A stretch of DNA of 63,757 bases from IMG/VR virus record IMGVR_UViG_3300019487_000007. One strand, given 5' to 3'. The notes beneath the pieces are model-generated. The model did not search any database. It had not been told where the DNA came from and saw only the letters and a program-made list of their open reading frames with translations. Origin of the DNA: a virus. Position 1 is the stretch's first letter, and the number at the start of each line of letters is the position of its first letter. This document shows, piece after piece, positions 16,097 to 29,433 of this stretch. The position numbers and the translations under genes are program-made.

Positions 16097-16429
16097 TCAT
16101 CGGCACTTAGCGCATCTAGTCGACAACCAGTAGCCCTTGGCTTTGACCTCTCCCGGCTCTCCGCAGAGCTCACAAACATCAAGCGACTTACTTTCCGCTT
16201 GATCAATAAGGTCGTCTACGGCGTCGTTGGAGAAATTTGTGTAGAAGCGCAGGCCCCCGTACTTCTCCTTGATGTCGGTGACTTTAAAGTTCGGGGGTAG
16301 ATCAAGAGCCTTGAGGGCTATCAGAAGGTCTCGAAGGAGCGGTGCCCAGCCGTCTCCGACGCCGAAATACAGGTCCCCCGTGGCGGAGGGGTAGATGGAG
16401 TCGAGTTCCTTTTGAACTTCGAGCTTCAT
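16097..16429 (-). CDS. conserved phage hypothetical protein with KEKYGGLRFY motif and C-terminal zinc ribbon
   Basis: IKEKYGGLRFY and CELCG-x17-CAKC. Confidence 0.55.
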   Translation of the reverse strand: MKLEVQKELDSIYPSATGDLYFGVGDGWAPLLRDLLIALKALDLPPNFKVTDIKEKYGGLRFYTNFSNDAVDDLIDQAESKSLDVCELCGEPGEVKAKGYWLSTRCAKCR

Positions 16430-17553
16430 TTCTGTCTCTCCAAGTAAGCGACACTCACTACCTTTAGGGCGACCCTCCCCACAGCGGGGTGATGGCGCTC
16501 CTCAACCGGCTTCACGACGACACCCTCTCGAAGGTGGTTCGCCCCCTTCACTACAGAAGGCCCTTCTGCCAGGGAGAGAACGGACTCCATGTTGAATGGA
16601 ACGATCCCGATTATGGGAGCAATTGGGATATCGAATGGGTAGAGAAGCTCTGGTAAGAGCATGGCATCGACAAAGCCATCCTCCGCGAGAATGTCAAAGG
16701 CTGCGAAGTCGATCTCCCCCGGGCCTCTTCCGTAACGAAGGTCTTGAACGTCCCCGTAGACTTCCCCATAGAGGGCGACTTCCGGATAGGCCCGGAGGAA
16801 GTCCACCACTTGGGGGTACTTGTCGATCACCTTCCACCAATCGGAGTGGTCCTTCAAACGCCATTGAGTACGACTTCCTACCCATAGGTAACGTTCATGA
16901 GAGGGAACGAGGGAGAGGCCCCGGCCAAAACCGCCCCACTTCATGGCGATAGGCCCGACTCGAAGACCATCCCTCGTGAGGACGATCCACTTCGTGTCGT
17001 CCCAAACGGCTCTAAAGTTGGCGCCGTGGATCTTCTCCGTTACCACCACGGGCTCGCCCTCCTCAAAGAGGGAAGAGTAGCGACGAAGGGATTCGAGATC
17101 GTAGATTGGGACACGAACGTTGGGTCGGAACTTCTTGGTCCACCACGGCTTCCTCTCCTTCTCCTTCGGCTCCTTCGAGGGAGGATCGTAGTGGATGACG
17201 CCTAGAGCTGGCCCAACATCGTCCCCTACGGCCCCGCCGACGCGCCAAATGGGGACGACCACCCCGAGGGAAGGTTCCTTCCGCAGACGGATCGCAGTCA
17301 CTCTGTGGTAGAGACGGCCGTCTATGCTCTTTGACGTGCGGCCCAAGTCCTTGAGCCAGGCGAATTCGACCACGTCCAGAGGGACGAGGCTATCAGGAGG
17401 AACGTAGGCGGCCAGGTCACCCTCCTTCCACTCCCCTTTTCTCACTACGCACTGATAGCCCCAGGGTTTGACGATCTCCAGCGCGTCTGCGTCGGGGTGC
17501 TCGTAAATGCGATCAATCCGGAAGACCTCGACTTTGTGTGTTGAACTACTCAT
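16426..17553 (-). CDS. RNA ligase (DRB0094 / Rnl5-like; N-terminal OB-like domain + nucleotidyltransferase)
   Basis: N-terminus HKVEVFRIDRIYEHPDADALEIV. Motif I TEKIHGAN, motif III ALYGEVYG, motif IV FAAFDIL. Confidence 0.7.
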   Translation of the reverse strand: MSSSTHKVEVFRIDRIYEHPDADALEIVKPWGYQCVVRKGEWKEGDLAAYVPPDSLVPLDVVEFAWLKDLGRTSKSIDGRLYHRVTAIRLRKEPSLGVVVPIWRVGGAVGDDVGPALGVIHYDPPSKEPKEKERKPWWTKKFRPNVRVPIYDLESLRRYSSLFEEGEPVVVTEKIHGANFRAVWDDTKWIVLTRDGLRVGPIAMKWGGFGRGLSLVPSHERYLWVGSRTQWRLKDHSDWWKVIDKYPQVVDFLRAYPEVALYGEVYGDVQDLRYGRGPGEIDFAAFDILAEDGFVDAMLLPELLYPFDIPIAPIIGIVPFNMESVLSLAEGPSVVKGANHLREGVVVKPVEERHHPAVGRVALKVVSVAYLERQK

Positions 17554-17791: not shown

Positions 17792-18226
17792 CTATCCTCC
17801 TCCCACCCTTCTAGTCCAACTTCTCCTCACTCCGAACTGCCTCGCCCTCCGATGGTCGTCAATGAAAACGTCAATCCTCTGTTGTTTAATCGCTCCCCCG
17901 ATGTCCTCCGCTCTCCGCTTACCCAAGCCCTCGATCTCTACCCATGTACCGATGGGGATGTAGAGGGGGTCGACGGCTATCGTCCGACCCTCTGTTGCCC
18001 TCGCTCCCGTCGAGGTGAAGCCGTCAGAAAAGGGGGCGGTACAGACCTCGCACGTACAGTATGCTGTAAGAAGGAATCTCCCGGGCAAGGGGGGCCGGGG
18101 TGGAGACAGGTAACCCATAAGAGCGAGCGACTCCCTCAGTGGAGCTAATTCGTCCCCGCCACCAGATGGGGATTCCTCCGTCACCCTCGAAGAGGGCGAG
18201 GTGAGGGTTAAAAAAAGGACTACCAT
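17792..18226 (-). CDS. 3D-domain (MltA/RlpA-like double-psi beta-barrel) protein with hydrophobic N-terminus
   Basis: TAYCTCEVCT..GTWVEIEGLGKRRAEDIGGAIKQQRIDVFIDDH. Start refined to the ATG at 18226 (MVVLFLTLTSPSS). Confidence 0.75.
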   Translation of the reverse strand: MVVLFLTLTSPSSRVTEESPSGGGDELAPLRESLALMGYLSPPRPPLPGRFLLTAYCTCEVCTAPFSDGFTSTGARATEGRTIAVDPLYIPIGTWVEIEGLGKRRAEDIGGAIKQQRIDVFIDDHRRARQFGVRRSWTRRVGGG

Positions 18227-18243
18227 CCACCATGCGGCCCTCC

Positions 18244-18450
18244 TCACGCGGCCCCGACCTTCCACCTTGGGCACACATCCCGATGAACGCCAATGCCGAA
18301 CTCTTCCGCGTAGGCGTAGCAGTCAGAGCAGAGTTTGTGCCCGCAGTCCAGATTCCACAACCCCACAGGCAGGAATCCGTCCGGCTGAACCCCACACTCA
18401 TCGCAGACAATGACGGCCTTCGAGAGGTCGCCCCGCAGGTAGATCTTCAT
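18244..18450 (-). CDS. small Cys-rich protein (68 aa)
   Basis: CDECG..CGHKLCSDC pattern. Confidence 0.5.
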   Translation of the reverse strand: MKIYLRGDLSKAVIVCDECGVQPDGFLPVGLWNLDCGHKLCSDCYAYAEEFGIGVHRDVCPRWKVGAA

Positions 18451-18773
18451 TCGAAGTCCTCCTCCTCCTCCTCCTCGAAGCCATCATCGTCGAAGACCCC
18501 TGGCAAACCGTCTGGATCGCTGGTCAGCTCATCTATATCTACTTCCCTACCTCCAGAGGTTGTGGAGGAGGAGAGCCTCCTCACTCCAAGAAGGGAATCC
18601 GGCTCAATCACCCATGTGGTGTAGATTCCGTCGTCCTTGGATGACAGCTTGGAGATGGCATCCACAACATCGGGCTCCCGCCGAAAGAGGCCGATCGGTC
18701 TTGTCTCCAGATAATCGTCGAACGTGAGCAAAAAAAGTTTCACTACCGCCTCCGACAATTGTTGCAGCCGCAA
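18447..18773 (-). CDS. hypothetical acidic protein (108 aa)
   Basis: ORF with an EEEEEDFE tail and an ATGA overlap downstream. Confidence 0.5.
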   Translation of the reverse strand: MRLQQLSEAVVKLFLLTFDDYLETRPIGLFRREPDVVDAISKLSSKDDGIYTTWVIEPDSLLGVRRLSSSTTSGGREVDIDELTSDPDGLPGVFDDDGFEEEEEEDFE

Positions 18774-19027
18774 GGGGCGGCCAGCCCTAGACCTATGAGA
18801 AGTTGATCCGCCCTCAGGGTCTCAGACGGCCTCAAACGAACATAGGCGCTATGAAAGTCCTCTCTAGAAAAGCCTTCCTTTAGTGTTGCGAACAACTCGG
18901 GATAGCAGGTTGGACACCAGGAGATCACTTCTATCTTTTGCCAATCACTTGCGTCCACCGATGTAGTACGTCTACAATAGCTGCATAGCACCTTCTTCCC
19001 CAAAAGTTTTACTTTAAGGTCTACCAT
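18743..19027 (-). CDS. zinc-ribbon protein (94 aa)
   Basis: CSYC..CPTC pattern. Confidence 0.5.
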   Translation of the reverse strand: MVDLKVKLLGKKVLCSYCRRTTSVDASDWQKIEVISWCPTCYPELFATLKEGFSREDFHSAYVRLRPSETLRADQLLIGLGLAAPCGCNNCRRR

Positions 19028-19712
19028 CCCTCCCTCCTATCATTTCTCTGATGGCCTCGGCATAAAGTTGAATCGTTTGGCCCCCCTCGTCTAGTCCGGG
19101 GGCGGAGTTCACCTCCAGAACGACCCTACAACCGTCACTCGTAATCCCCGTGTCAACGGCACCCCAAGCATAACCCAACGCCCGGACGGCCCCCTTTGCT
19201 ATGCTTCGTAGGCCCTTTGGAAGAGCCCTCCCGTAGGAGAGCCGCCATCCAGCTTCGGTAGAGCGGATCCATTCGTGGGCGCCTGGTTTTGGAAGACGTT
19301 GGCCCCAACGAAGTATTCGAATGTCGTCGCCTTCAAAGTCGAAGACGTGGCAACGATACTCCTTGATGAGGTCTAGCTTCTTTGTCCAGAAGGCTGGAAA
19401 GAGGAGTGGTCTCAAGAAGTCTCTTCCGTGGGAGTGATGAAGACTTCGGCCTAGCCACCCTTCTTTCGGTTTAGTTGAGAAGGAAGGGGTGGGTATGCCC
19501 TTTTTTGAAAGGGCCTCCAACTCTACCAACTTGTTGGCCTTGAGAGAGGCTTGAAGGACTTTGGCTCCCACGGCCCACTCCACAGAAGAGCCCCAGTTGA
19601 TGACGACGTCTCCCCTAGAAAGCTTCCTGGGTGAGGTGAGCCGCTTCGCTCCGAGCAGCTTAGAGAGGAGCCGAGCGCTCCGAGAAGGGCGGTCAGCGAA
19701 GACGTAGATCAT
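19014..19712 (-). CDS. ATP-grasp enzyme (RimK-like carboxylate-amine ligase)
   Basis: KEYRCHVF and VVLEVNSAPGL (compare RimK EVNSSPGL). Confidence 0.7.
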   Translation of the reverse strand: MIYVFADRPSRSARLLSKLLGAKRLTSPRKLSRGDVVINWGSSVEWAVGAKVLQASLKANKLVELEALSKKGIPTPSFSTKPKEGWLGRSLHHSHGRDFLRPLLFPAFWTKKLDLIKEYRCHVFDFEGDDIRILRWGQRLPKPGAHEWIRSTEAGWRLSYGRALPKGLRSIAKGAVRALGYAWGAVDTGITSDGCRVVLEVNSAPGLDEGGQTIQLYAEAIREMIGGRDGRP

Positions 19713-19936
19713 TATTTTTCCTCCGAGACGGGCAGAGGCAGCCCCTTAGCAAGGAGTGCGGCATTGATATCGCTCTGCATGCAAGCCTTGGCAGCGAGCA
19801 GCGAGACGGCTGTGTCTACGTCGAACCAGACGACTCGCGCAAAGAGACCATGGCCTGCGGCGTGTTCGCGATGAGCCCGTCTACGGGCGCACTCGAAGAC
19901 GACCTCGCCGATCTTGCACGTTGCAGTGCATTTCAT
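19712..19936 (-). CDS. hypothetical protein (74 aa)
   Basis: ORF with a 1-nt TAATG overlap to the ATP-grasp start. Confidence 0.5.
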   Translation of the reverse strand: MKCTATCKIGEVVFECARRRAHREHAAGHGLFARVVWFDVDTAVSLLAAKACMQSDINAALLAKGLPLPVSEEK

Positions 19937-19984
19937 CCTCTCACCTCCTACGGCGGAAGCGGGTCAGCGCTTCCCTCCTCCTTC

Positions 19985-20845
19985 CTATGCGGCCTTCTGC
20001 CGACAAAGCGTGTATTCCTTGAAGGCAAACTGCCTCAGCTCGATCAGCACTTGCCTCAACTCGTCATTAGACCAAAACCTAGAGGAATCGAGGGGAGTGC
20101 TTTCCTCATTCTTCTTTGACTTCTTCCCGACTCGGGCTCCGGTCATGACGGCTTTCGCCGCTTCTAAGAGGAACTGCGTGCCGCCCTTCGCCTTCTTCCC
20201 CTTTCCCTCGGTCTCTTCTTCCTGTTTCCAGAGGTCTACCTCTGGAGCGATGTTGATCGCACCCATCCAGTCCTTGGATGGATTGGAGTGGTCGAAACCC
20301 TCTCTCGCCGACCACGAGCCCCACCTGAAGGTCTTGTTCTCGTCGGCAGAAAAGAGCAAGAGGCGCTGATCCCCACCGAAATCCTCGAAGGCCGTCACAC
20401 CAGGGCCATAAACCGCGAAAAAGAAGGCTATAGCTCGCGAGTCAGTCCAAGGACCTGTGGGGATCTCCTTTCTCCGCTCCATTATGAGTCTTTTTAGATC
20501 GAATCTCCACGAGTTCCAGTGGCCGTTGTGGAAAAGGACGGTCTTAGCAGTGCCCTTCAAGTCGAGAGGCGTACGAGGAGTTACTACGAAGGGGTGGCAG
20601 AGCCTAGGATCTGTGGCTCCCACAGAGGCCTTTCGAAAGTGAATCACGTAGGGCTTTGGTGGTTCCTTCTTGTGAAGCTTCTCAAGAAGATAGTCCACAG
20701 TGAGACCTTTCTCCCACCGAACCAACCGCTCTCCCTTAATCGTCTCCCGCCAAGCCAGTCCAATCCCATCGGAGTTTCTTTCCTGTGCCCGCTGAAGCAT
20801 GTTGTCGTCGGGGCGAGCCTCCTTAACGTGAAATATGATGCACAC
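19985..20845 (-). CDS. Class-II (Ntn) glutamine amidotransferase-like protein
   Basis: GTG-TGC start gives a Cys2 nucleophile (MCIIFHV). IHFRKASVG..CHPF and FHNGHW. Shine-Dalgarno AAGGAGAG lies upstream. Confidence 0.75.
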   Translation of the reverse strand: MCIIFHVKEARPDDNMLQRAQERNSDGIGLAWRETIKGERLVRWEKGLTVDYLLEKLHKKEPPKPYVIHFRKASVGATDPRLCHPFVVTPRTPLDLKGTAKTVLFHNGHWNSWRFDLKRLIMERRKEIPTGPWTDSRAIAFFFAVYGPGVTAFEDFGGDQRLLLFSADENKTFRWGSWSAREGFDHSNPSKDWMGAINIAPEVDLWKQEEETEGKGKKAKGGTQFLLEAAKAVMTGARVGKKSKKNEESTPLDSSRFWSNDELRQVLIELRQFAFKEYTLCRQKAA

Positions 20846-20888
20846 GAGACATCTCTCCTTCCTCGTAGATCGTCACTTCGCCTCCTCC

Positions 20889-21074
20889 TTACCTTACAAG
20901 ATCGGATAGTATTCGAACGCCACGATGGGGAGTCTTGGCCCCCTTCCCCGCTGGCTGGTACCATTTCGAGTCGTGATCATTCGCCCGCCACGCGCCACAG
21001 CGCCAACACCACAAGATGCGACCCCCGGCGAGAATCCACAAGCTTTGACGATGGTCGTGTGTTCTCAAGCGCAC
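20889..21074 (-). CDS. hypothetical protein (61 aa)
   Basis: TTG-initiated ORF with an LWCWRCGAW segment. Confidence 0.4.
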   Translation of the reverse strand: MRLRTHDHRQSLWILAGGRILWCWRCGAWRANDHDSKWYQPAGKGAKTPHRGVRILSDLVR

Positions 21075-21535
21075 CTCCCTCGACTGGAGCCTTTTCGGGC
21101 GGCGACGAAGGCTTCGATGTGCTCGGCGACCTGGAGAGCGGAAGCGCCGGCGGGCAATTTGTAGCCTGGAACGAATAGATCCGACGCCTCCAATACGGTT
21201 ATACCGAAGAGCGACGTCGCAGGAAACAGCAACTCGACATTAGTGTCTAGCTCGTCCCAATCCACCCCGGCCACCCCCAACCGCGTTACCTCAAAGTCGC
21301 GGGTTAGCCTCAGCCCCAAACGCCGGAAATACGGATCGGTCGTCGCCCAGCCTAGCGCGCAGGCCGTGGTCCCACAGGAAAGATCCCACGCGCCCTTCCA
21401 GTTACCTCCGACCCAAAAGCGGAAGTCGAACCTCCGCTGCACCTTCTTCGTCCGCAAGAGACGCGCCAGCCGCAGCAGGCGCGCGTTCCCCAACTTGCGC
21501 GAAACAGGCTCCACCCTTCTTTTACCCCTCATCAC
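21065..21535 (-). CDS. hypothetical protein (156 aa)
   Basis: FDFRFWVGG..SCGTTACALGWA pattern of a recurrent but uncharacterised family. GTGA overlap upstream. Confidence 0.55.
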   Translation of the reverse strand: MMRGKRRVEPVSRKLGNARLLRLARLLRTKKVQRRFDFRFWVGGNWKGAWDLSCGTTACALGWATTDPYFRRLGLRLTRDFEVTRLGVAGVDWDELDTNVELLFPATSLFGITVLEASDLFVPGYKLPAGASALQVAEHIEAFVAARKGSSRGRCA

Positions 21536-21729
21536 TGGTCCTCTTCATCCTCGAAATAGCCCGCGTCCGCTTCCGCGTCGGGATCGTAGCCCCATCGGTC
21601 CTCGGGGGGATCGTCGGGGGGAGTCGTCTTCCACGAGTCGTAGTCACCGAAGATCATGTTCTCGCCTCTCGTGTCTCTGGACGCTTGCATTCCCACGGCA
21701 CCCCATTGCTTCGTCGTGCCCATTATCAC
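21532..21729 (-). CDS. hypothetical acidic protein (65 aa)
   Basis: ORF with GTGA overlaps at both ends. Confidence 0.5.
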   Translation of the reverse strand: MIMGTTKQWGAVGMQASRDTRGENMIFGDYDSWKTTPPDDPPEDRWGYDPDAEADAGYFEDEEDQ

Positions 21730-22460
21730 TCTCCTTCACACAAATCCAAGAATTGTGCGCCAGGTGACTTGAGCGTGATAAGAGCCTGAAGTCCGACGTT
21801 CGCGGAAATCATCAAGATGTGATCCCGTTCGGCGGAGGCGGCGTAGTCGGCGTAGGCCGCGGAGGCGGCGGAGGCGGCGTAGGCGCCGGCGGAGGCGGAG
21901 GCGGCGGCCGCGAAGGCGGAGGCCGCGAAGGCGGAGGCGGAGGCGGCGGCCGCGAAGAGGGCGGCGGCGCAGTGGAAGGCGGCGCGGGAGGCCTCGCGGG
22001 CGGCGAGCGCGCTATCTCGCGCTATCAGTGCTGCTTCCGCTGTACCTTCTTGCTCACACCGCAACGCCGCCGCCCTGAGGGCTTCCTCGTGATTAGCCGC
22101 CTCCCTTTGCGCCACGCGGCGCAGCATCTCCGGTAATACTTGCCGAATGGTGCCCTCGGCCACCAATCGCGCGAACTCTCTCTGGTCGATGGTGTCGCTT
22201 CCAAGTTGAGCCACGGCCAATTTCCGCAGCCCTGTCGTTCGAGCCTCATCCGAAGACCACCGTGCGTCGTTTAGTGGGATTTTGAACTGTCGGACCGCCT
22301 CGCCCACGCAGTTTGGCTGATCCCCGTGCGGAAGGCCAAGGGCGTAGCAGACCGCGGCCTCCACGCACATTTTCCCCGGCACCGGATTACCGATTCCCTT
22401 CACGAGCCCTGCGTCCACCACTTTCAACACCTTTTGGGCTATGTCTCGTGTGATTTTCAT
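21726..22460 (-). CDS. Ala-repeat protein (244 aa)
   Basis: The ATG at 22460 shares an ATGA with the upstream stop. N-terminus KMCVEAAVCYALGLPHGD. The C-terminus has AAAASASAFAASAFAAAASASAGAYAASAASAAYADYAASA, encoded by GCGGAGGCG-type tandem DNA repeats (about 21830-21975). Confidence 0.6.
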   Translation of the reverse strand: MKITRDIAQKVLKVVDAGLVKGIGNPVPGKMCVEAAVCYALGLPHGDQPNCVGEAVRQFKIPLNDARWSSDEARTTGLRKLAVAQLGSDTIDQREFARLVAEGTIRQVLPEMLRRVAQREAANHEEALRAAALRCEQEGTAEAALIARDSALAAREASRAAFHCAAALFAAAASASAFAASAFAAAASASAGAYAASAASAAYADYAASAERDHILMISANVGLQALITLKSPGAQFLDLCEGE

Positions 22461-22657
22461 TTGCTTACCTCCTCGTCCATGTCCTCGTCGTCGTAGTCTG
22501 TGTAACTTCGGTCGTATACGGCTATTTCGAACACTTCCAGATCGGTGAGCGTGTTCCGGCTTTCTCGCTGGTCTGAGCAGGACTCGCACGCATACACACA
22601 GTGGGGGCACTCCCAAGTATCGGGACACACGCATCGGCTTCGGTCGGTCTTATACAT
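22457..22657 (-). CDS. Cys-rich small protein (66 aa)
   Basis: CVCPDTWECPHCVYACESC followed by an acidic tail. Confidence 0.5.
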   Translation of the reverse strand: MYKTDRSRCVCPDTWECPHCVYACESCSDQRESRNTLTDLEVFEIAVYDRSYTDYDDEDMDEEVSK

Positions 22658-22677
22658 TTTGCTCCCTCCTCCCTTCG

Positions 22678-23340
22678 CTAGCGAGGGCGCCGCTTAAACG
22701 GTTCCAGCTTCAACTTGATGTTGTTGACCTTTCTTTTCCTCTCCCTGAGAAGAAACTTCTCCACCGCCTCCACGAAGCAATGAACGCCGCTCATATACAA
22801 GGCACTCCTCTCCGTCTCCCATCCAGGGAAGAGGCGCAACTCTAGCGTCTTGTGCAGGGTCCAACAGAAGTTTAAGTGACAGTGACGGGCCGAGCCGTCT
22901 GGACCCTTACGGGTCTCGTAAAGCTGCGTTTCGGGGGTAAAGTCCTTACGGCAGAAGTTCCTTCCATTGGGGGCTCGAAAGGTTCCTCTGAAGCGCTTCC
23001 AAAAGTGGTGAGTCTCGGGAATCTCCTTCTCGATAGCCCACGCCTTAATGATCTTTAGAAGAAATCTGTAGAAGCGGGGGGTGGTTAGCCGGAGGTAGTC
23101 CATCCTCGACTTGAAGGAGAGGTGTATGTGGAAGCCGCAAGATGTATCGACTCCGTCAGGCCTATGAGCCACGAGCCACTCTTCCAGGGCGTCTAGGTCC
23201 GAAAAGGCAGGAGAGTTGATCTCTCCATTGTGGTTGAGTTGTGTCCTGACAGAACGGTCCTCAACGATCACCTTCCGTAGGGGCCGTCTGTTCCACCCAC
23301 CCTCCAGCTCAACCCCCACTTTGTAGATGTACTTCATCAA
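22678..23340 (-). CDS. Amidoligase_2-type carboxylate-amine ligase
   Basis: VGVELEGGW, NGEINSPAF and TSCGFHIHLS. Confidence 0.7.
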   Translation of the reverse strand: MMKYIYKVGVELEGGWNRRPLRKVIVEDRSVRTQLNHNGEINSPAFSDLDALEEWLVAHRPDGVDTSCGFHIHLSFKSRMDYLRLTTPRFYRFLLKIIKAWAIEKEIPETHHFWKRFRGTFRAPNGRNFCRKDFTPETQLYETRKGPDGSARHCHLNFCWTLHKTLELRLFPGWETERSALYMSGVHCFVEAVEKFLLRERKRKVNNIKLKLEPFKRRPR

Positions 23341-23873
23341 AGCCCCTTTTGATCGACCTTAATCTGAATGTCGAGTTCATAATCGAAGACGAAATGCTTG
23401 AGTAGCGTGTAGAGTCCCCTCTTCAGGCCATTGGTAAAACGATAGTCCGGCCCTTCTATGAGAGAGAGTGGGATGGTGTCTCGAAGGGGGAAGGTCATGC
23501 CGTCTTTGATGCCCGGGATCAGGAGGAAGCCGAAGTTCAGGACGATACCAGGAGTCTCTCTGCGAAGCGTAGGAACATTAGGCATACCGTCAATTGCATG
23601 GTGCCAGACTCGGTCTAGGCCTGCAAGGAAGATTCCTTCCTCTTGAAAACGCCGCTGAGCATCTCGGTCCAGCTTGAGAACATAGGGTCGAGCCCCCCAA
23701 ACCGGGTCTGTGGCAGGAGAGATCTCCCCTCCCGAGGAGATCTTGAAGGCCTCTTCGAAGAGTGGAGACTTCACCCTCAAGGTAAGTTTTCCTCGCTTTT
23801 TAGAGAAAATGAATCTCTCCCCGCTAGTGTCTATGTTGCTATCGAAGCTGGCGGTGTCTATAATAGATGTCAC
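23337..23873 (-). CDS. hypothetical protein (178 aa), translationally coupled to the amidoligase
   Basis: ATGA overlap at 23337-23340. No motif. Confidence 0.55.
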   Translation of the reverse strand: MTSIIDTASFDSNIDTSGERFIFSKKRGKLTLRVKSPLFEEAFKISSGGEISPATDPVWGARPYVLKLDRDAQRRFQEEGIFLAGLDRVWHHAIDGMPNVPTLRRETPGIVLNFGFLLIPGIKDGMTFPLRDTIPLSLIEGPDYRFTNGLKRGLYTLLKHFVFDYELDIQIKVDQKGL

Positions 23874-23883
23874 TTAACACCTC

Positions 23884-24204
23884 CTATGCGGCCTTTTCTG
23901 TCTTCGAAAGGTTCTTCAAGAGTGGAAGTTTGATCGCCCCACCTTCCCTATCCGTCGCCACGCGGTAGCAGTGGAGCAGGATTTGCTCCGCCAGCTCGGT
24001 CATGTGTTTCGGGCAGAAATGGATGGTCGAGAAGTCTTCCGTCTTCCCGTCCTCTATGACGGAAGCCACGATGATGTAGTGCTCTCCTCCCACCGGGATC
24101 CGATCCTCCGTCCCACACGCGAAACAATAATCCGAAAGGGATTCTTTGTTTCGGTACTCCAAGTAAACGTCCTCACCTACGAAGCTTACTTGTTCCTTCT
24201 TCAT
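23884..24204 (-). CDS. hypothetical protein (106 aa), Cys/His-containing
   Basis: CFACG..HFCPKH pattern. Confidence 0.55.
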   Translation of the reverse strand: MKKEQVSFVGEDVYLEYRNKESLSDYCFACGTEDRIPVGGEHYIIVASVIEDGKTEDFSTIHFCPKHMTELAEQILLHCYRVATDREGGAIKLPLLKNLSKTEKAA

Positions 24205-24216
24205 TTCTTTCCTTTC

Positions 24217-24457
24217 TTTCTCTCCCCAAAGGAGGGGGCTCGAACCCTATAGTGGCAGCTCCCGGCTCAAGAGACCGAGTGGGACGCCGCGGTACTAACT
24301 GTCCGATCGCTTACGTGTCCCGCTCCTCGTCTCCGAGTAGAGAAGAAACCTTCCCACAGAGGACACTTCACGAAAGGAGTTCGCTCACGCTCGTCAGTCC
24401 GCAACCCACCCAAACACCTTGACGTAGAGAGGGAGCCCCCTCCTTTGGAAAGAGAAC
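24217..24457 (-). ncRNA. Candidate structured RNA/DNA element closed by a 16-bp (extendable to about 24-bp) long-range helix
   Basis: 24226-24241 (CCAAAGGAGGGGGCTC) is the exact reverse complement of 24433-24448, and 6 more bp pair after a 2x2 mismatch. The 191-nt interior has no ATG ORF on the gene strand. It contains the local hairpin CUCG-GAGA-CGAG and the GUGUCC/GGACAC pairing. Strand assumed from the flanking genes. Confidence 0.45.
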
Positions 24458-24473
24458 TTCTTGAAGTCCGATT

Positions 24474-25439
24474 CTACGCCGCCTCCTCAATGCCGGCTTT
24501 GTTGAGGGTCGTAAACCAGCCGAGATGGAAATCACTTACATCGTCGAGGCGAAACTCGAAACGCCTTTGCCCGTACTCTGTCTTCTCTCTTACACTCTCT
24601 AGGGTGGAGAAGGTATAGAAGGGCAGGAGGCGTGTCTTCTCCACTAGCTTGTCCAGTCCCTCTCCCGTATTGATGGCCTGTTGGAGAAGGTCTCCCTCCT
24701 TCTCTAAGAAGGGTTGAAAGTCGCGCCAGAGATGAGGTGCGTTTTGAAGAACATGGCGACCCACCCCGAAGACGAAGGAAAAGAAGACCGCGTGGTTCAT
24801 CCATTCAGCGGAGAGAGTTCGATATTCTAGGCCTTGGTAGTTTCCTTCGTGGAAGTCCTTGACTCGATACTCTCCCGCCTTCCCGTAGAGGCACCTCCGT
24901 CTGAAGTGCTCCGGTCTGGCGAACATCCAAGAAAAGGGCGCCCCGAGGAATAGGTCTAAGAGCTTCACGCTCTCTCTGATGTGGGAGGTCCACCACCAAT
25001 CCCGCTTTAGGGCGGAGAACCAAAGGTGGCCCCCGGAGTACCGGAAGGGGTGTGTTAGTCCGTCCACGTCGATCTCGCAGGGGCCATCCTCCCATGCGTT
25101 GAGGGAAGGAGAGCAACCGAAGGTGGCAACATCAACTGGCAGACTCAAGAGGGAGGGTAGAGGAACTTCAATAGATGGAAGAGTGCTGGCTGACAGACCA
25201 GTATTCCGAAGAAAAGCCATGACCCCGGCTCTTAGAGCATTGCCCATAGTGCCTCGGCAGTTGTAGGCGTGGATAAAGTTAACCTCCGCTGCGTAGCCAT
25301 CACGGTAGAGGACGATAGCCTCACTCATCCTAAGCCTAGCCGCCGGGTCTTCTTTCCCATTGCCGAGGCCAGCGTCCGAGGCTGGAATGATCTTGCCCTC
25401 CTTGAGGAGAAAGAATTCTGGATCTGCACCGAGTAACAC
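24474..25439 (-). CDS. phiEco32-type COOH-NH2 ligase (glutamine-synthetase/GCS2-like fold)
   Basis: N-terminal LLGADPEFFLL signature. Preferred start is the GTG at 25439, 8 nt after AAGGGAGGA (the track extends to 25487). Confidence 0.65.
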   Translation of the reverse strand: MLLGADPEFFLLKEGKIIPASDAGLGNGKEDPAARLRMSEAIVLYRDGYAAEVNFIHAYNCRGTMGNALRAGVMAFLRNTGLSASTLPSIEVPLPSLLSLPVDVATFGCSPSLNAWEDGPCEIDVDGLTHPFRYSGGHLWFSALKRDWWWTSHIRESVKLLDLFLGAPFSWMFARPEHFRRRCLYGKAGEYRVKDFHEGNYQGLEYRTLSAEWMNHAVFFSFVFGVGRHVLQNAPHLWRDFQPFLEKEGDLLQQAINTGEGLDKLVEKTRLLPFYTFSTLESVREKTEYGQRRFEFRLDDVSDFHLGWFTTLNKAGIEEAA

Positions 25440-25612
25440 TGTCTGATCCTCCCTTTTCAACCCCCCTCCAGGCTCGGCAGTACGCACCCCTAGGGCGTAC
25501 TGTAAAACGGTAGTGGCTGAAATTTATCTTTTCACGACTCTCTATCTATAGAGGGGGTTGAAAACGGCCTTTCTGCCCCCCTAAAGTGTTGAATTACTGG
25601 GACTTAGCCTTT

Positions 25613-26026
25613 TCAAGGCGTTTTTGGGACTTCGGGGTCGAGGTCTGGCGGTGAGTCCGTCCGCTCCTCGTCGGATACGACGTAAAGTCCCTGGAGGGTA
25701 TCCAGGTTCATCTGAGACGGCAGACTGACGAAGAGCCACCGCGACTTCTCCGAGCGATAGACCACCACCGAAGCCCCCCCTCTTACGACCTTCACCAACA
25801 AGATGGGTTGTCCACTCGGCAGTTCGCGAGATACCTGCCCGTAGAATAGTATCTCCGCATCATAGCGTATGTGTCCGTAGCCTTTTTTGGTTAGGAGTAA
25901 GTCAGTATGTCGTACGTATCCCGACTCCCCCTCCGACAAGTCCCTCAATCGCAGGAATCTCCGCTTACGAGGAATAACCACTGGCTTGGGGGTTAGCTCT
26001 TCGAGCAGGTTTGTCATTTCCTCCAT
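25613..26026 (-). CDS. hypothetical protein (137 aa)
   Basis: ORF with the start refined to the ATG at 26026 (MEEMTNLL), because the longer form overlaps the GGCT gene. Confidence 0.5.
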   Translation of the reverse strand: MEEMTNLLEELTPKPVVIPRKRRFLRLRDLSEGESGYVRHTDLLLTKKGYGHIRYDAEILFYGQVSRELPSGQPILLVKVVRGGASVVVYRSEKSRWLFVSLPSQMNLDTLQGLYVVSDEERTDSPPDLDPEVPKTP

Positions 26027-26052
26027 GTCAATACATTCCTCTAGCCCGCCAA

Positions 26053-26385
26053 TTATCTCTGCCTCCAAACACCGTCTTTGACAAGGTGATAGGCGTCGAA
26101 GTGTCTGTCCATCACGTAGATCCAAACCTCCCTGCCGTCGGTAGTGGGGTGTTTCTCCCTCTCATACGCGCCCTCGACCGCGTCCAGTTGACGGAAGAGA
26201 TGTGGATCCACCATGTAGACCTCCGCCTCCACGCTTCCTTCCCCCCTCGTGATGGCGGGGTAAGACCCCACGGAGTACATGTTGAATCCCTTGAGGGTGG
26301 CGTTCCCCTCGAAGGGGGAATCCATCAGAAGATGGTGTAGACGAAAACCCTTTTTGAGGGTGCCGTAAACTGCCAATGGCTCCAT
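26053..26385 (-). CDS. Gamma-glutamyl cyclotransferase (AIG2/GGCT-fold) protein
   Basis: LAVYGTLKKG, GSYPAI, VEAEVYMV and LDAVEG. The ATG at 26385 overlaps the protease stop by 1 nt. Confidence 0.8.
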   Translation of the reverse strand: MEPLAVYGTLKKGFRLHHLLMDSPFEGNATLKGFNMYSVGSYPAITRGEGSVEAEVYMVDPHLFRQLDAVEGAYEREKHPTTDGREVWIYVMDRHFDAYHLVKDGVWRQR

Positions 26386-26957
26386 CAGCGGCCTCCTTCC
26401 TTGTGAATAATCTTTGACCACATTTCGCCCGCCACGAGGACGCCCCGACCCCACATGTTATCTGCATCTTTGGGAAGGGCACCCTTGTTGATGGCCACCA
26501 CCTCCCCGAGGGAGTTGATAACGCACGAGCCCGAACTCCCTGGGCCGCCCCCCTTCTTGTAGGTGAAGAGGATGGGGGAGGGATTGACGATCTCCGTCTC
26601 TACGATGCGGGGTGTGCCCCCCTTGGTGAAATCGTAACCCTCCAACCAGACCCTATCTCCCCTCTTAGGGGCCTCTGGGGCGAGGGGGAAAAACTTCTGG
26701 AAGTCTGATCCTGAGACGACCTCTAGAAGGGCAAGATCGCGCGCCTGATCCACCAAGACGGGGCGAAGGATGCCTTCTACTCCATTCCCGTCGGAGTAGA
26801 TCAGGGTGCGGGGTTTGGAGTCGCTGTAAGCGACGTGGGCGTTGGTCAGGGCGGTGGTGCTGGAGATCGGACAGGCGTGCCCGACAGCCGTAGAGCCATT
26901 AACGTCCCCCGACACCATGATGATCCCCGAAACGACGGCTAGGACTAGACTACTCAC
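26385..26957 (-). CDS. Secreted trypsin-like (S1) serine protease
   Basis: Signal peptide MSSLVLAVVSGIIMVSG. Triad contexts TNAHV, RDLALLEV and GGPGSSGSCV. Confidence 0.75.
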   Translation of the reverse strand: MSSLVLAVVSGIIMVSGDVNGSTAVGHACPISSTTALTNAHVAYSDSKPRTLIYSDGNGVEGILRPVLVDQARDLALLEVVSGSDFQKFFPLAPEAPKRGDRVWLEGYDFTKGGTPRIVETEIVNPSPILFTYKKGGGPGSSGSCVINSLGEVVAINKGALPKDADNMWGRGVLVAGEMWSKIIHKEGGR

Positions 26958-27659: not shown

Positions 27660-27911
27660 TTACTCCTCGGCCTCGACCTCGTCGATGGACTCATGGCCGA
27701 CTATGGCGTCGAAAAGGGCGGCACCCACACCACCAGATACGAACCAACAGTGGGAAGAAGAAGGATCCCTGAAGACAAAACCGGGATTGCAGGTCTTCAG
27801 GTTAGCTCCGAGAAGGGAAGAGAGCCACCCTCCCACCCTCAACCAGCGGGCGTCTGCTTGATCCTTGTCAACAAGTTCCCCCCAGGGATCTAAGCGGTTA
27901 AGCGGTGGCAC
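27660..27911 (-). CDS. hypothetical protein (83 aa)
   Basis: ORF with no motif. Confidence 0.5.
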   Translation of the reverse strand: MPPLNRLDPWGELVDKDQADARWLRVGGWLSSLLGANLKTCNPGFVFRDPSSSHCWFVSGGVGAALFDAIVGHESIDEVEAEE

Positions 27912-28006
27912 TTCATGCTCCTCTCACTAGCCATCATCAGGCAGCGCCTAACGCTGCGACGCACGCCGACGGCGCGTGCGTTTCGGCCTGGGATAGGAAG
28001 TGGTTC

Positions 28007-29287
28007 CTACTGTTTTGTGATCCGAAGGGAGTAGCTTCCCGTGACGTGGCCGTCGTTCGGGGAGTAGTTGGGGGAATTGTTGAATTGGTCGCCCCGACCC
28101 CAGACGAGCTGTCCTGTGAGGGACTCCCCGCAGGGGACAACCACCGTGGTGGACTTTTTCACGAAATTCGAAGGGTTGTAGACGATCTCGATCAAGTAGG
28201 TCCCACCGTCACCCTCTCCGATGGAGTAGCTTCCTGTGACGGTGACGCTGAAGGTAGTGGGCGTTCCGGCCTGGACCACCCTCGATGTCACACCCGGCGG
28301 ATTGTAAAGAGTCATGTCGTTGCCGGGGGCCCCAGGCGGATTGGCGGAAACGAATCGACACACATCGGGGCGAGTGGAGCCTGTGCCGTCGTTCGGGATG
28401 TTGAAGTCGTCCAACCACTCACCACCGCGGTTCTCGCAGGCGTTCCTCCTAGCGTTGTCGTTGCCCTGGTTCATCTTCCAATAGCTCGTGTACTCCCGCA
28501 CTTCCGGCGTTCCGGGATGCTCTTGAAGCTGCTTCAGGGCCGATCCACTCGTCGGGCTCCCGTCGAAGCGGTCTTCGCAGAGGGCGGCGGTCACCTCGAA
28601 GGAGGCTTCGGCCGAGGCCGTGCATTCCAATTCCTGCGGACCGTAGGGGATCACGTAGGTGAACTCGTAGAGCCCGATCTCCGTGAGGCGGGAATAAGTC
28701 GTCTTGGGAGGCTCGGGAAGAAAGTAACCACCCTGAGGGGAGACCTCCGCCGAGACGTAAGTGACCGTTCCGGCCTCGGAGATGTTGAAACTGAAGGCGG
28801 GAACGGGGGCGTCGAAGTCAGAGCACTTGGGGTCGGGAGTCGGGGTCGGTCTGGGTCGGGGAGGACGGGGCGGGCAAGAACCCCACGCTGCGAACTGCTT
28901 TCCCCTCAGGAGGCCCCCATTCGGGGAGACGATATCGGCTTGGATGTCCAGACAAGCCCACTTCGAGGCGTCGACCTGGTGGATTCCATTCCCCACTCCC
29001 TTCTGTCGATAGAGGGGCTCGCCCGTTCGAGAGGTGCCGCTCTCGAACTTGTTCCAGAGCTCCAGAATGAAGTCGGATCTCTGCGCCCCCTCGATGGTGA
29101 AGACGAAGGTGGGAGGGGAGAGGGAGATCGAACCCTCCGCGCCGCCCGCCCCACTTCCCGCCACCTGAGCGACGGAAGAGGTGGAAGAAGACGTCACGGA
29201 GTCGTCCGAGGGGGAGGAGGGAAGGTTCCCTCCTCCACTACAACCGAAAGCCGCTCCGAGGAGGAGGGCCAGGAACATCTTTCTCAT
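28007..29287 (-). CDS. Large lipoprotein (426 aa) with Ser-rich and Pro/Arg/Thr-rich linkers
   Basis: MRKMFLALLLGAAFG|CSGGG signal with lipobox. CPPRPPRPRPTPTPDPKC linker and multiple Cys. Confidence 0.65.
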   Translation of the reverse strand: MRKMFLALLLGAAFGCSGGGNLPSSPSDDSVTSSSTSSVAQVAGSGAGGAEGSISLSPPTFVFTIEGAQRSDFILELWNKFESGTSRTGEPLYRQKGVGNGIHQVDASKWACLDIQADIVSPNGGLLRGKQFAAWGSCPPRPPRPRPTPTPDPKCSDFDAPVPAFSFNISEAGTVTYVSAEVSPQGGYFLPEPPKTTYSRLTEIGLYEFTYVIPYGPQELECTASAEASFEVTAALCEDRFDGSPTSGSALKQLQEHPGTPEVREYTSYWKMNQGNDNARRNACENRGGEWLDDFNIPNDGTGSTRPDVCRFVSANPPGAPGNDMTLYNPPGVTSRVVQAGTPTTFSVTVTGSYSIGEGDGGTYLIEIVYNPSNFVKKSTTVVVPCGESLTGQLVWGRGDQFNNSPNYSPNDGHVTGSYSLRITKQ

Positions 29288-29433
29288 TTTGCTTCTCCTT
29301 TAAGGGCGGTCTCACTACGGTGCGCGCGCACCCCCAAGCCTAGTGGACAGCCGCCGACAGCATCCTTCCAGGTCGCTTGGAGAGGTTTAATCATTGGGTG
29401 AGCGCCCACCCACTCGGGCTCCTGGCCCTGAGC

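Follow-up and report, generated by a model that had tools for sequence, protein, structure and literature searches.

A probable compact variant of the early-gene amide-ligase cassette of tailed phages on an uncultured phage genome

A cluster of early genes for enzymes of amide-bond chemistry has been described among several groups of tailed phages, and in RIO-1-, LUZ24-, phiEco32- and PA11-like podoviruses it is known in the literature as the 'peptidoglycan modification cassette'. It has been presented as a conserved seven-gene module with a proposed role in peptide-bond or peptidoglycan chemistry (PMC6256558, PMC5498523). The gene table of phage UFV-P2 lists, in this order, a COOH-NH2_lig, a 186-aa protein, an Amidoligase_2, (an HNH), a GATase II, small open reading frames (ORFs), an ATP-grasp and an AIG2/GGCT (PMC3890496), and in PSA-HP1 the cassette genes are expressed immediately on infection (PMC7082346). 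Here, a string of six enzyme genes on a virus genome of 63,757 nucleotides (IMG/VR record IMGVR_UViG_3300019487_000007; this whole stretch is referred to as the window) was compared with this module. Five of the six enzymes probably constitute a divergent, compact copy of the cassette, and the string is a known, unsolved module in variant form rather than a new system.

The canonical cassettes of LUZ24-like (Bruynoghevirus), phiEco32-like (Gordonclarkvirinae), PA11/K4-like and RIO-1/HP1-like (Zobellviridae) phages were found to share five enzyme families with the window, namely the COOH-NH2 ligase, the amidoligase, the glutamine amidotransferase (GAT), the ATP-grasp ligase and the gamma-glutamyl cyclotransferase (GGCT). 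The relative order of the COOH-NH2 ligase, amidoligase, GAT and ATP-grasp is also shared, as is a co-directional, tightly packed arrangement in the early/replication arm; a ~180-aa protein is encoded between the first two of these genes in both, as a positional analogue in the window, where four ORFs also separate the amidoligase from the GAT and the GGCT lies upstream. In phages T2S2 (Zobellviridae), LUZ24 and SU7 (Gordonclarkvirinae) the cassette is situated just upstream of the primase/helicase, and it was further identified in Paundecimvirus K4 and, in rearranged form, in a crAss-like phage. Because at least four cultured phage lineages, unrelated to one another, have this gene order in common, it is not due to chance. 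The initial annotation of the window, made from the sequence alone, had considered such a combination unusual; it is instead what podoviruses of the LUZ24, phiEco32, PA11/K4 and RIO-1 types carry as their standard early-gene cassette, with a further occurrence in a crAss-like phage, and the annotation's pointer to the amidoligase survey of Iyer, Aravind and colleagues was apt. The K4 cassette was observed to carry an extra class-I GATase of the Peptidase_C26 (gamma-glutamyl hydrolase) family (gp21; L009 4259-4879), and a small gene annotated 'glutamine amidotransferase' lies beside the rearranged cassette of crAss-like cr108_1 (L008 6351-6983).

The window is an uncultured tailed-phage genome with the enzyme string on its minus strand, within a long early/replication block (~1.3-30 kb) that encodes a family-A DNA polymerase (PolA), a UDG-domain protein, AAA ATPases, a PD-(D/E)XK nuclease, an RNA ligase and a 3D-domain protein. 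PolA, the UDG-domain protein, the nuclease and the RNA ligase are encoded on the same strand downstream of the cassette, which places it in the early/DNA-metabolism arm. Structural genes, including those for a P22-like portal and an SU10-type adaptor, were identified on the plus strand from ~37 kb, and no tRNA genes were found in the window. A blastn search of the 8-kb enzyme region against 50,697 phage records gave zero matches, and the portal (39612-42125, plus strand) gave a single weak protein-level match among the same records (28% identity over 24% of its length); on these grounds the phage lineage and its structural module are taken to be without a cultured relative. A scan of viral contigs with the COOH-NH2 ligase returned no confirmed relative. 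Relatives were reached via protein clusters, homologues of the Ntn and amidoligase proteins being encoded on long metagenomic phage contigs, and are designated L005 (18 kb), L006/L007 (64-67 kb) and the more distant L012 (92 kb). A promoter and terminator scan of the window gave site counts not above those of shuffled controls and is uninformative on expression.

All six enzyme genes of the initial annotation, the five named above and a protease, were confirmed on the minus strand (Table 1), their family calls holding on profile, family or fold evidence and their catalytic motifs being intact. In the profile searches that it had proposed, the COOH-NH2 ligase, the GGCT and the protease exceeded the Pfam threshold, the ATP-grasp was assigned via phrog_2599, and the GAT and amidoligase were assigned through family-level evidence. 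The COOH-NH2 ligase was matched by Pfam COOH-NH2_lig (PF14395; 2.1e-8, 34.2 bits against a cut-off of 25) and phrog_3815 (9.5e-23), with its GxDPE motif (G4, D6, P7, E8) and 15 further residues invariant among nine phage homologues. It is 54% identical to its L005 counterpart and 25-32% identical to those of T2S2, K4, SU7 and LUZ24, and tblastn with this protein identified 193 phage records, mostly of Pseudomonas, Escherichia, Vibrio and Aeromonas phages. The GGCT was matched by Pfam GGACT (3.9e-23, 82.7 bits against a cut-off of 22.8) and phrog_2520 (1.4e-15), and is 43% identical to its counterpart on L005 and 37% to that on L006. Its YGTL loop (Y7, G8, L10) and the glutamate of its LDxxE motif (E71) are invariant across seven phage homologues; E71 is presumably the catalytic glutamate, as in human GGACT. 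Strong Shine-Dalgarno sequences precede the likely starts of the GGCT (AGGAGG, before the ATG at 26385) and the COOH-NH2 ligase (25439), as well as that of an alanine-repeat protein discussed below (22460).

For the ATP-grasp, the best PHROG match was phrog_2599, 'S6 glutaminyl transferase' (2.4e-17), and the protein scored alone fell below the Pfam cut-off (R2K_2, E=0.024, 15 against 26.2 bits). Residues K61, E118, R120 and H122 of an ExRxHV motif (118-123), D187, and E200 and N202 of an ExN motif were invariant among nine phage homologues including that of the window. Identity to the ATP-grasps of canonical cassettes was 26-32% over nearly the full length, and 57% to that of L005; tblastn identified 139 phage records. 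The protein thus resembles RimK and the R2K clade in its ExN metal site, ExRxH motif, conserved lysine and RimK-like best PHROG match. It differs in scoring below the R2K_2 threshold and in being embedded with two other ligase families, and no S6-like substrate or RimA/RimB partners were seen. LUZ24 gp14 (L002 4743-5705), one of two ~320-aa proteins without annotation that head the canonical cassette, also showed a faint similarity to this protein (E=0.01 in a small database; 32% across 53 aa) and could be a second, very divergent ATP-grasp-like protein.

The amidoligase alone scored below the cut-off of PF12224 (E=0.05, 13.8 against 22 bits), whereas all nine members of its family matched that model (best 2.6e-5). 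Alignment of the family profile with phage amidoligases (LUZ24, SU7, T2S2, K4 and C75C1) using hhalign gave a probability of 96.3% (E=1.7e-9), with the invariant motifs GVELEGG, DxSV/LR, CGFHIH, RxxC, RxxxLN and GTxExR aligned. A PDB profile search with the family gave no significant match; the assignment was settled by the profile-profile comparison with phage amidoligases. The protein was modelled with AF2 at a pLDDT of 83, and is without the C-terminal ~140 residues of the canonical proteins of 310-391 aa. The amidoligase, GAT and ATP-grasp genes are directly adjacent on L005, L006 and L012.

The GAT of the window is a stand-alone class-II (Ntn) domain with no synthase domain, and the protein alone gave no Pfam, PHROG or PDB sequence match. 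Among its 20 homologues, Met1-Cys2, R71, H106-N107-G108 and D135 are invariant, and family members matched GATase_4 (6/20) or GATase_6 (4/20). These residues presumably correspond to GlmS Cys1/Arg73/Asn98-Gly99/Asp123. The AF2 model (pLDDT 82, with residues ~1-200 mostly >90) was matched by Foldseek to the glutaminase domains of GFAT/GlmS, PurF and AsnB (E 4.6e-7 to 2e-3), and a PDB profile search with the family returned a marginal match to 1te5 only (E=0.013). Residue pattern and predicted fold together assign the protein to the class-II (Ntn) amidotransferases.

Its closest relative among cultured or annotated phage records was identified in phage C75C1 (32% identity, Cys2 kept), which also has a GGCT 37% identical to that of the window and an amidoligase gene nearby. 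In contrast to the window, the Ntn and GGCT domains of C75C1 form one polypeptide, and the annotation of this locus includes neither a COOH-NH2 ligase nor an ATP-grasp. This 298-aa protein (OQ984151.1; L004 8001-8897), a short Ntn domain (Cys2) fused to GGCT with the amidoligase gene ~0.9 kb upstream, is annotated solely as 'gamma-glutamyl cyclotransferase'. As the two domains are fused in C75C1, Ntn and GGCT are taken to act in one pathway.

Table 1. Features of the enzyme string and its surroundings, with positions given on the window
Feature	Position	Strand	Remarks
RNA ligase with PHA02142-type OB domain	16426-17553	-	60% identical to L005 counterpart
3D-domain (MltA/RlpA-type) protein	17792-18274	-	Hydrophobic N-terminus
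68-aa Cys-rich protein	18244-18450	-	Weak RING/zinc-finger-like Pfam matches (zf-RING_5, E=0.005, below cut-off)
Acidic ORF, ~98-108 aa	18447-18773	-	Likely start GTG 18743; poly-Glu end ...DDDGFEEEEEEDFE; two genes downstream of ATP-grasp
94-aa Cys-rich protein	18743..19027	-	Directly downstream of ATP-grasp, overlaps its end; clade-conserved
RimK/R2K-clade ATP-grasp peptide ligase	19014..19712	-	232 aa; core gene
74-aa ORF	19712..19936	-	Between Ntn and ATP-grasp; strong Shine-Dalgarno
Stand-alone class-II (Ntn) glutamine amidotransferase domain	19985..20845	-	286 aa; Ntn ~1-200, then low-confidence K/E-rich tail of ~85 aa; core gene
Four-ORF insertion	21065..22657	-	Between amidoligase and Ntn: 66-aa Cys-rich/acidic, 244-aa Ala-repeat, 65-aa acidic and 155-aa proteins
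244-aa Ala-repeat protein	21726-22460	-	ATG 22460; C-terminal Ala-rich repeats (AASA/FAA...)
Amidoligase_2, short form (glutamine-synthetase-like carboxylate-amine ligase)	22678..23337	-	219 aa from ATG 23337 (~220 aa); core gene
178-aa partner	23337..23873	-	Slot between COOH-NH2 ligase and amidoligase; homologues in L005 and L006
106-aa partner	23884..24204	-	CxxC...CxxH Cys/His motifs, C-terminal GAI(K/R)LPL; clade-conserved
COOH-NH2 ligase, phiEco32-type (GCS2-like carboxylate-amine ligase)	24474..25439	-	Likely start GTG 25439; frame open to 25487; core gene
~135-170-aa ORF	25613..26026	-	Between GGCT and COOH-NH2 ligase; likely start ATG 26026 or 26017
GGACT/AIG2 gamma-glutamyl cyclotransferase (GGCT)	26053..26385	-	Likely start ATG 26385, 110 aa; core gene
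Trypsin_2 (S1-fold) serine protease	26385..26957	-	Pfam 1.8e-11, 45.4 bits, cut-off passed
426-aa protein	28007-29287	-	Lipoprotein-like N-terminus (MRKMFLALLLGAAFGC...); residues 60-138 54% identical to L005 stretch

Eight genes were found to be common to the window, L005 and L006/L007, encoding the GGCT, COOH-NH2 ligase, 106-aa protein, 178-aa protein, amidoligase, Ntn, ATP-grasp and 94-aa protein, with identities mostly of 34-61% and the weakest L006 matches at 21-27%. The synteny check called for by the initial annotation thus found the five-enzyme set together in cultured phages and an eight-gene block on L005 and L006. Judged by their motif residues, the five enzymes are predicted to be catalytically intact, and in the nearest uncultured relatives the 106-, 178- and 94-aa partners accompany them in one conserved block. 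The 106-aa partner, for which no Pfam or PHROG match was found, is 55% identical to a protein at the equivalent position on L005 and 33% to that on L006. The 94-aa protein, with conserved cysteines, is 49% identical to its L005 counterpart and weakly similar to that of L006, again at the equivalent position. The slot of the 178-aa partner is filled by a protein of ~180-210 aa in every canonical cassette, and an exhaustive phmmer search with the window protein retrieved six cluster representatives among 1.8 billion proteins, none of them annotated.

The stop/start overlaps by which the initial annotation had tied some nine small proteins to the enzymes were all verified (26385, 23337-23340, 22457-22460, 21726-21729, 21532-21535 and 19712). 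Most of these small proteins, among them those of the four-ORF insertion and the 74-aa ORF, are lineage-specific. The 74-aa ORF gave no family match and no tblastn match on L005, L006 or L012, where the Ntn and ATP-grasp genes are adjacent. The ORF between the GGCT and COOH-NH2 ligase genes had no family match and showed only a faint alignment, without significant similarity, to its slot-mates on L005 (161 aa) and L006 (141 aa); in the relatives this slot holds a fast-evolving ORF of similar size.

In its architecture the window is more compact than the canonical cassettes, and its enzymes are 25-32% identical to theirs. The canonical GAT is a protein of 423-667 aa with an N-terminal GATase_6 domain and an unassigned C-terminal half (200-450 aa), while that of the window consists of Ntn and tail only, and the amidoligase is also short. 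LUZ24 gp14 and gp15, the pair of ~320-aa proteins encoded at the upstream end of the canonical cassette, had no detected counterpart in the window. Unlike the canonical cassette, the window clade has its own Cys-rich partners (106 and 94 aa), and in the window four unrelated ORFs are inserted in the cassette and the ~180-aa protein is not detectably homologous to the canonical one.

Several observations weigh against regarding the string as a copy of the canonical cassette. Literature searches found no experimental characterisation, product or target of the cassette, so that every catalytic step is deduced from the enzyme families. With the window protein scored alone, three of the six domains fell below the Pfam curated threshold, and Foldseek with the amidoligase model returned nothing significant (GS, YbdK and GCL being among the weak matches). 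The canonical GGCT follows the ATP-grasp at the end of the cassette, whereas that of the window is encoded upstream of the ligases. The chemistry of the window could also differ from that of LUZ24 and phiEco32, as its GAT does not possess the C-terminal half of the canonical ones. Homology of the 178-aa partner to the canonical ~190-aa protein (LUZ24 gp17, SU7 gp084, T2S2 ORF14, K4 gp26) was rejected (hhalign probability 0.1%), and this partner is a positional analogue only. Finally, the tight stop/start coupling of the protease and GGCT genes could reflect a functional link in this lineage.

The initial annotation had counted this protease as part of the unit, a claim that did not survive comparison. 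Its catalytic triad (H41, D74, S142) is invariant among 14 homologues, many of which possess classic signal peptides at the aligned position. The N-terminus of the window protein has no basic n-region or basic residue; export of the protein is plausible, judging from these homologues. No protease gene was found on L005 or L006, and on phage contig L010, which carries a homologue, no cassette or ligase gene lies within 8 kb of it on either side (16.7 kb examined); membership in the cassette was rejected on this synteny. The family is common on short metagenomic contigs, and the protease appears to be a neighbour of the cassette and not a component of it.

The four-ORF insertion is likewise absent from L005, L006/L007 and L012, where the Ntn gene directly follows that of the amidoligase. 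Comparison of the four ORFs with the relatives (tblastn) gave no match at that position, the sole match, to another part of L005 (16800-16889), covering 30 residues of the 66-aa protein. Over its N-terminal 112 aa, the 244-aa alanine-repeat protein shares 52% identity with a hypothetical protein from Caulobacter phage Cr30 (T4-like), where this homologue is found on its own, and the gene therefore looks like an independent mobile gene. A role of the inserted Ala-repeat, acidic and Cys-rich ORFs as substrates is unsupported, given that they are missing in the relatives. Together with the protease, the 74-aa ORF and the ~170-aa ORF, the four ORFs at 21065-22657 appear on comparative grounds to be lineage-specific additions and not parts of the machinery.

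Two envelope-directed genes were observed to flank the region, encoding the 426-aa lipoprotein-like protein and the 3D-domain protein. A plus-strand ORF of 498 aa (27905-29401) lies antisense to the former and is probably spurious. An RNA ligase gene is found near the cassette on L005 and L006 as well, and L012 has both T4 Rnl1-type and RNA_ligase genes; the RNA ligase may represent an RNA-repair function of the lineage. Homologues of the 68-aa Cys-rich protein were identified at other positions on L005 (46%) and L006 (36%).

With regard to function, the five enzymes most likely perform cytoplasmic, ATP-dependent amide-bond chemistry on glutamate or glutamine (Glu/Gln) early in infection, a prediction drawn from their sequences. 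They are taken to be cytoplasmic as no N-terminal signal sequence was seen on any of them, and the chemistry is placed around Glu/Gln because of the Ntn-GGCT fusion of C75C1, the Peptidase_C26 gene of K4 and the adjacent amidoligase, Ntn and ATP-grasp genes. Either a small molecule or the terminus of a peptide would receive the successive amide bonds that the three ATP-dependent carboxylate-amine ligases would form around Glu/Gln via acyl-phosphates. The Ntn domain would bind glutamine or a gamma-glutamyl amide through Cys2 and the Arg, Asn-Gly and Asp residues, and two modes of action are conceivable. In lipid II amidation, GatD, a class-I GATase, donates ammonia in trans to MurT; the Ntn domain may similarly pass glutamine-derived ammonia in trans to an acyl-phosphate of the flanking amidoligase or ATP-grasp. 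Alternatively, it may hydrolyse a gamma-glutamyl amide, for which ergothioneine synthesis offers a precedent in EgtA (a GCS-type ligase) and EgtC (an Ntn 'amidotransferase' that removes glutamate) (PMC5790434). In EgtA/EgtC and MurT/GatD, as in the window, a small amidotransferase-type protein that stands alone is paired with an ATP-dependent carboxylate-amine ligase, but the analogy is a functional one, and EgtB/D/E-type partners are absent in the window. The GGCT would release the gamma-glutamyl group from a gamma-glutamyl amine as 5-oxoproline. Gamma-glutamyl would thus probably serve the pathway either as building block or as transient handle, in an early action on a host molecule. The proposal in the initial annotation that the island assembles and trims a gamma-glutamyl/peptide conjugate on a small phage protein or on an envelope component was neither borne out nor contradicted as a whole; its gamma-glutamyl or peptide-bond chemistry is reasonable, and the trimming by the protease loses comparative support.

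Three end points for this chemistry, a peptidoglycan precursor, a protein and a free metabolite, were weighted roughly equally, each being possible and none of them probable when taken singly. Remodelling of peptidoglycan precursors, a candidate that we hold tentatively, would have the ligases make or alter the stem peptide (gamma-D-Glu, iso-Gln or meso-diaminopimelate (mDAP)-type linkages) on cytoplasmic UDP-MurNAc-peptide or lipid II, with the Ntn domain amidating a carboxylate in the manner of MurT/GatD and the GGCT recycling gamma-glutamyl; the resulting change in the envelope would block superinfection or tune lysis. Later articles (PMC6256558, PMC5498523, PMC10580990) attribute the proposal of this role to Iyer et al. 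(2009) and Hardies et al. (2013), and it is consistent with the immediate-early expression in PSA-HP1 (PMC7082346) and with the named hosts of the COOH-NH2 ligase and ATP-grasp matches, which are mostly Gram-negative (Pseudomonas, Escherichia, Vibrio, Aeromonas, Klebsiella). In the window the cassette is also flanked by envelope-directed genes (the protease, the 426-aa lipoprotein-like protein and the 3D-domain protein), but these neighbours are not conserved along with it. Stem peptides are in fact built by the Mur-ligase and Fem families, to neither of which any of the five enzymes belongs, and the known or predicted substrates of the R2K clade of ATP-grasps are proteins (PMC4431377).

Tagging of a protein is an equally tentative candidate, in which the RimK-like ATP-grasp and the other ligases would attach Glu/Gln-type residues to a protein of the host or the phage (such as S6 or a translation factor), at its C-terminus or on a side chain, with the GGCT and Ntn serving as erasers or editors. 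RimK lengthens Glu tails on ribosomal protein S6. The ORF at 18447-18773 has a poly-Glu tail resembling a RimK substrate, and by analogy it could be a substrate or mimic for the ATP-grasp; tblastn did not detect it on L005 or L006, however. The best PHROG match of the ATP-grasp, 'ribosomal protein S6 glutaminyl transferase', points in the same direction, as do the prediction of Burroughs et al. (2015) that phage R2K.2 enzymes modify host proteins (PMC4431377) and a jumbo-phage survey that agrees with it. The conserved 106-, 178- and 94-aa partners could be substrates or adaptors of such a system, but they have no shared C-terminal Glu/Gly motif, the small partners are not conserved between the window clade and the canonical cassettes, and nothing points to a target.

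Synthesis of a small molecule, to which we give no greater weight, would employ gamma-glutamyl as a transient handle: the GCS2-like ligase would attach Glu, the other ligases would extend or amidate the intermediate, and the Ntn and/or GGCT would remove the handle, yielding a free metabolite of use to the phage, such as an amide, a dipeptide or a polyamine conjugate. In butirosin synthesis, the ATP-grasp BtrJ and the cyclotransferase BtrG install and remove a gamma-glutamyl handle. Both kinds of installer (GCS2/GS-like and ATP-grasp) and both kinds of remover (GATase_4/6-type Ntn and AIG2-like GGCT) are present in the window, the Ntn-GGCT fusion of C75C1 adjoins an amidoligase only, a Peptidase_C26 gene is found in the K4 cassette, and EgtC supplies a precedent (PMC5790434). 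These precedents are, however, analogies and not cases of homology within the same subfamily; no scaffold-modifying enzyme (methyltransferase, oxidase, pyridoxal phosphate enzyme or carrier protein) is conserved in the block.

A more specific proposal, which we consider doubtful, is that the compact form found in the window, L005, L006 and L012 is a distinct minimal cassette, in which the truncated amidoligase, the synthase-less Ntn and the ATP-grasp would act as a trans-assembled, glutamine-dependent complex, with ammonia channelled from the Ntn to an acyl-phosphate on the neighbouring ligase. The 106- and 94-aa predicted zinc-binding proteins would then be substrates or adaptors, and in the phage of the window the product would be coupled to the envelope via the translationally linked exported protease. 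If true, this proposal would establish an enzyme architecture that is new and give a first approach to the product of the cassette.

A role in auxiliary nitrogen or glutathione metabolism, with boosted ammonium assimilation into glutamate, cysteine or glycine, is very improbable. It has been claimed for 'Phage-ZRK32' in a study that annotates these genes as auxiliary metabolic genes of nitrogen metabolism and reports that growth was promoted (PMC10945688), but the inference there rests on annotation labels, the enzymes belong to phage-specific families and are not orthologues of GS, GshA/GshB or GOGAT (the GS and GCL matches of the amidoligase in Foldseek were not significant), and the early/replication-gene setting in lytic podoviruses and the immediate expression fit host takeover better. 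Hypermodification of DNA nucleobases, with the ligases and amidotransferase decorating a modified base with an amino-acid-derived group, is just as remote, although in viral metagenomes genes for thymidine hypermodification are found together with those for amidoligases and amidotransferases (PMC8989533) and the cassette always lies beside replication genes. No match to a 5-hydroxymethyluracil (5-hmU) kinase, aGPT-Pplase, dUMP/dCMP hydroxymethylase or TET/JBP was found among the larger window ORFs scanned, and none is recorded in the loci of the relatives. We know of no report of base modification in LUZ24 or phiEco32. Both explanations are thus much less likely than the preceding three, because the enzymes are of phage-specific families and the family scans gave no match to a hydroxymethylase, 5-hmU kinase or pyrophosphorylase.

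Few conserved enzyme modules are as widespread among lytic podoviruses as this cassette, which is carried by phage-therapy candidates such as LUZ24-like phages of Pseudomonas and phiEco32-like coliphages, by marine phages of the RIO-1 type and by a crAss-like phage of the gut. The question of its product is more directly testable in cultured phages such as LUZ24, phiEco32 and PSA-HP1, and neither the protease nor most of the small ORFs of the window should be counted among the pathway components. What the window adds is a compact architectural variant from an uncultured lineage, showing that the module tolerates a reduced form with an Ntn-only GAT, an amidoligase of ~220 aa and interchangeable partners of ~180 aa. 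This reduced form narrows the catalytic core that any mechanism must explain, and offers a smaller gene set for reconstitution.

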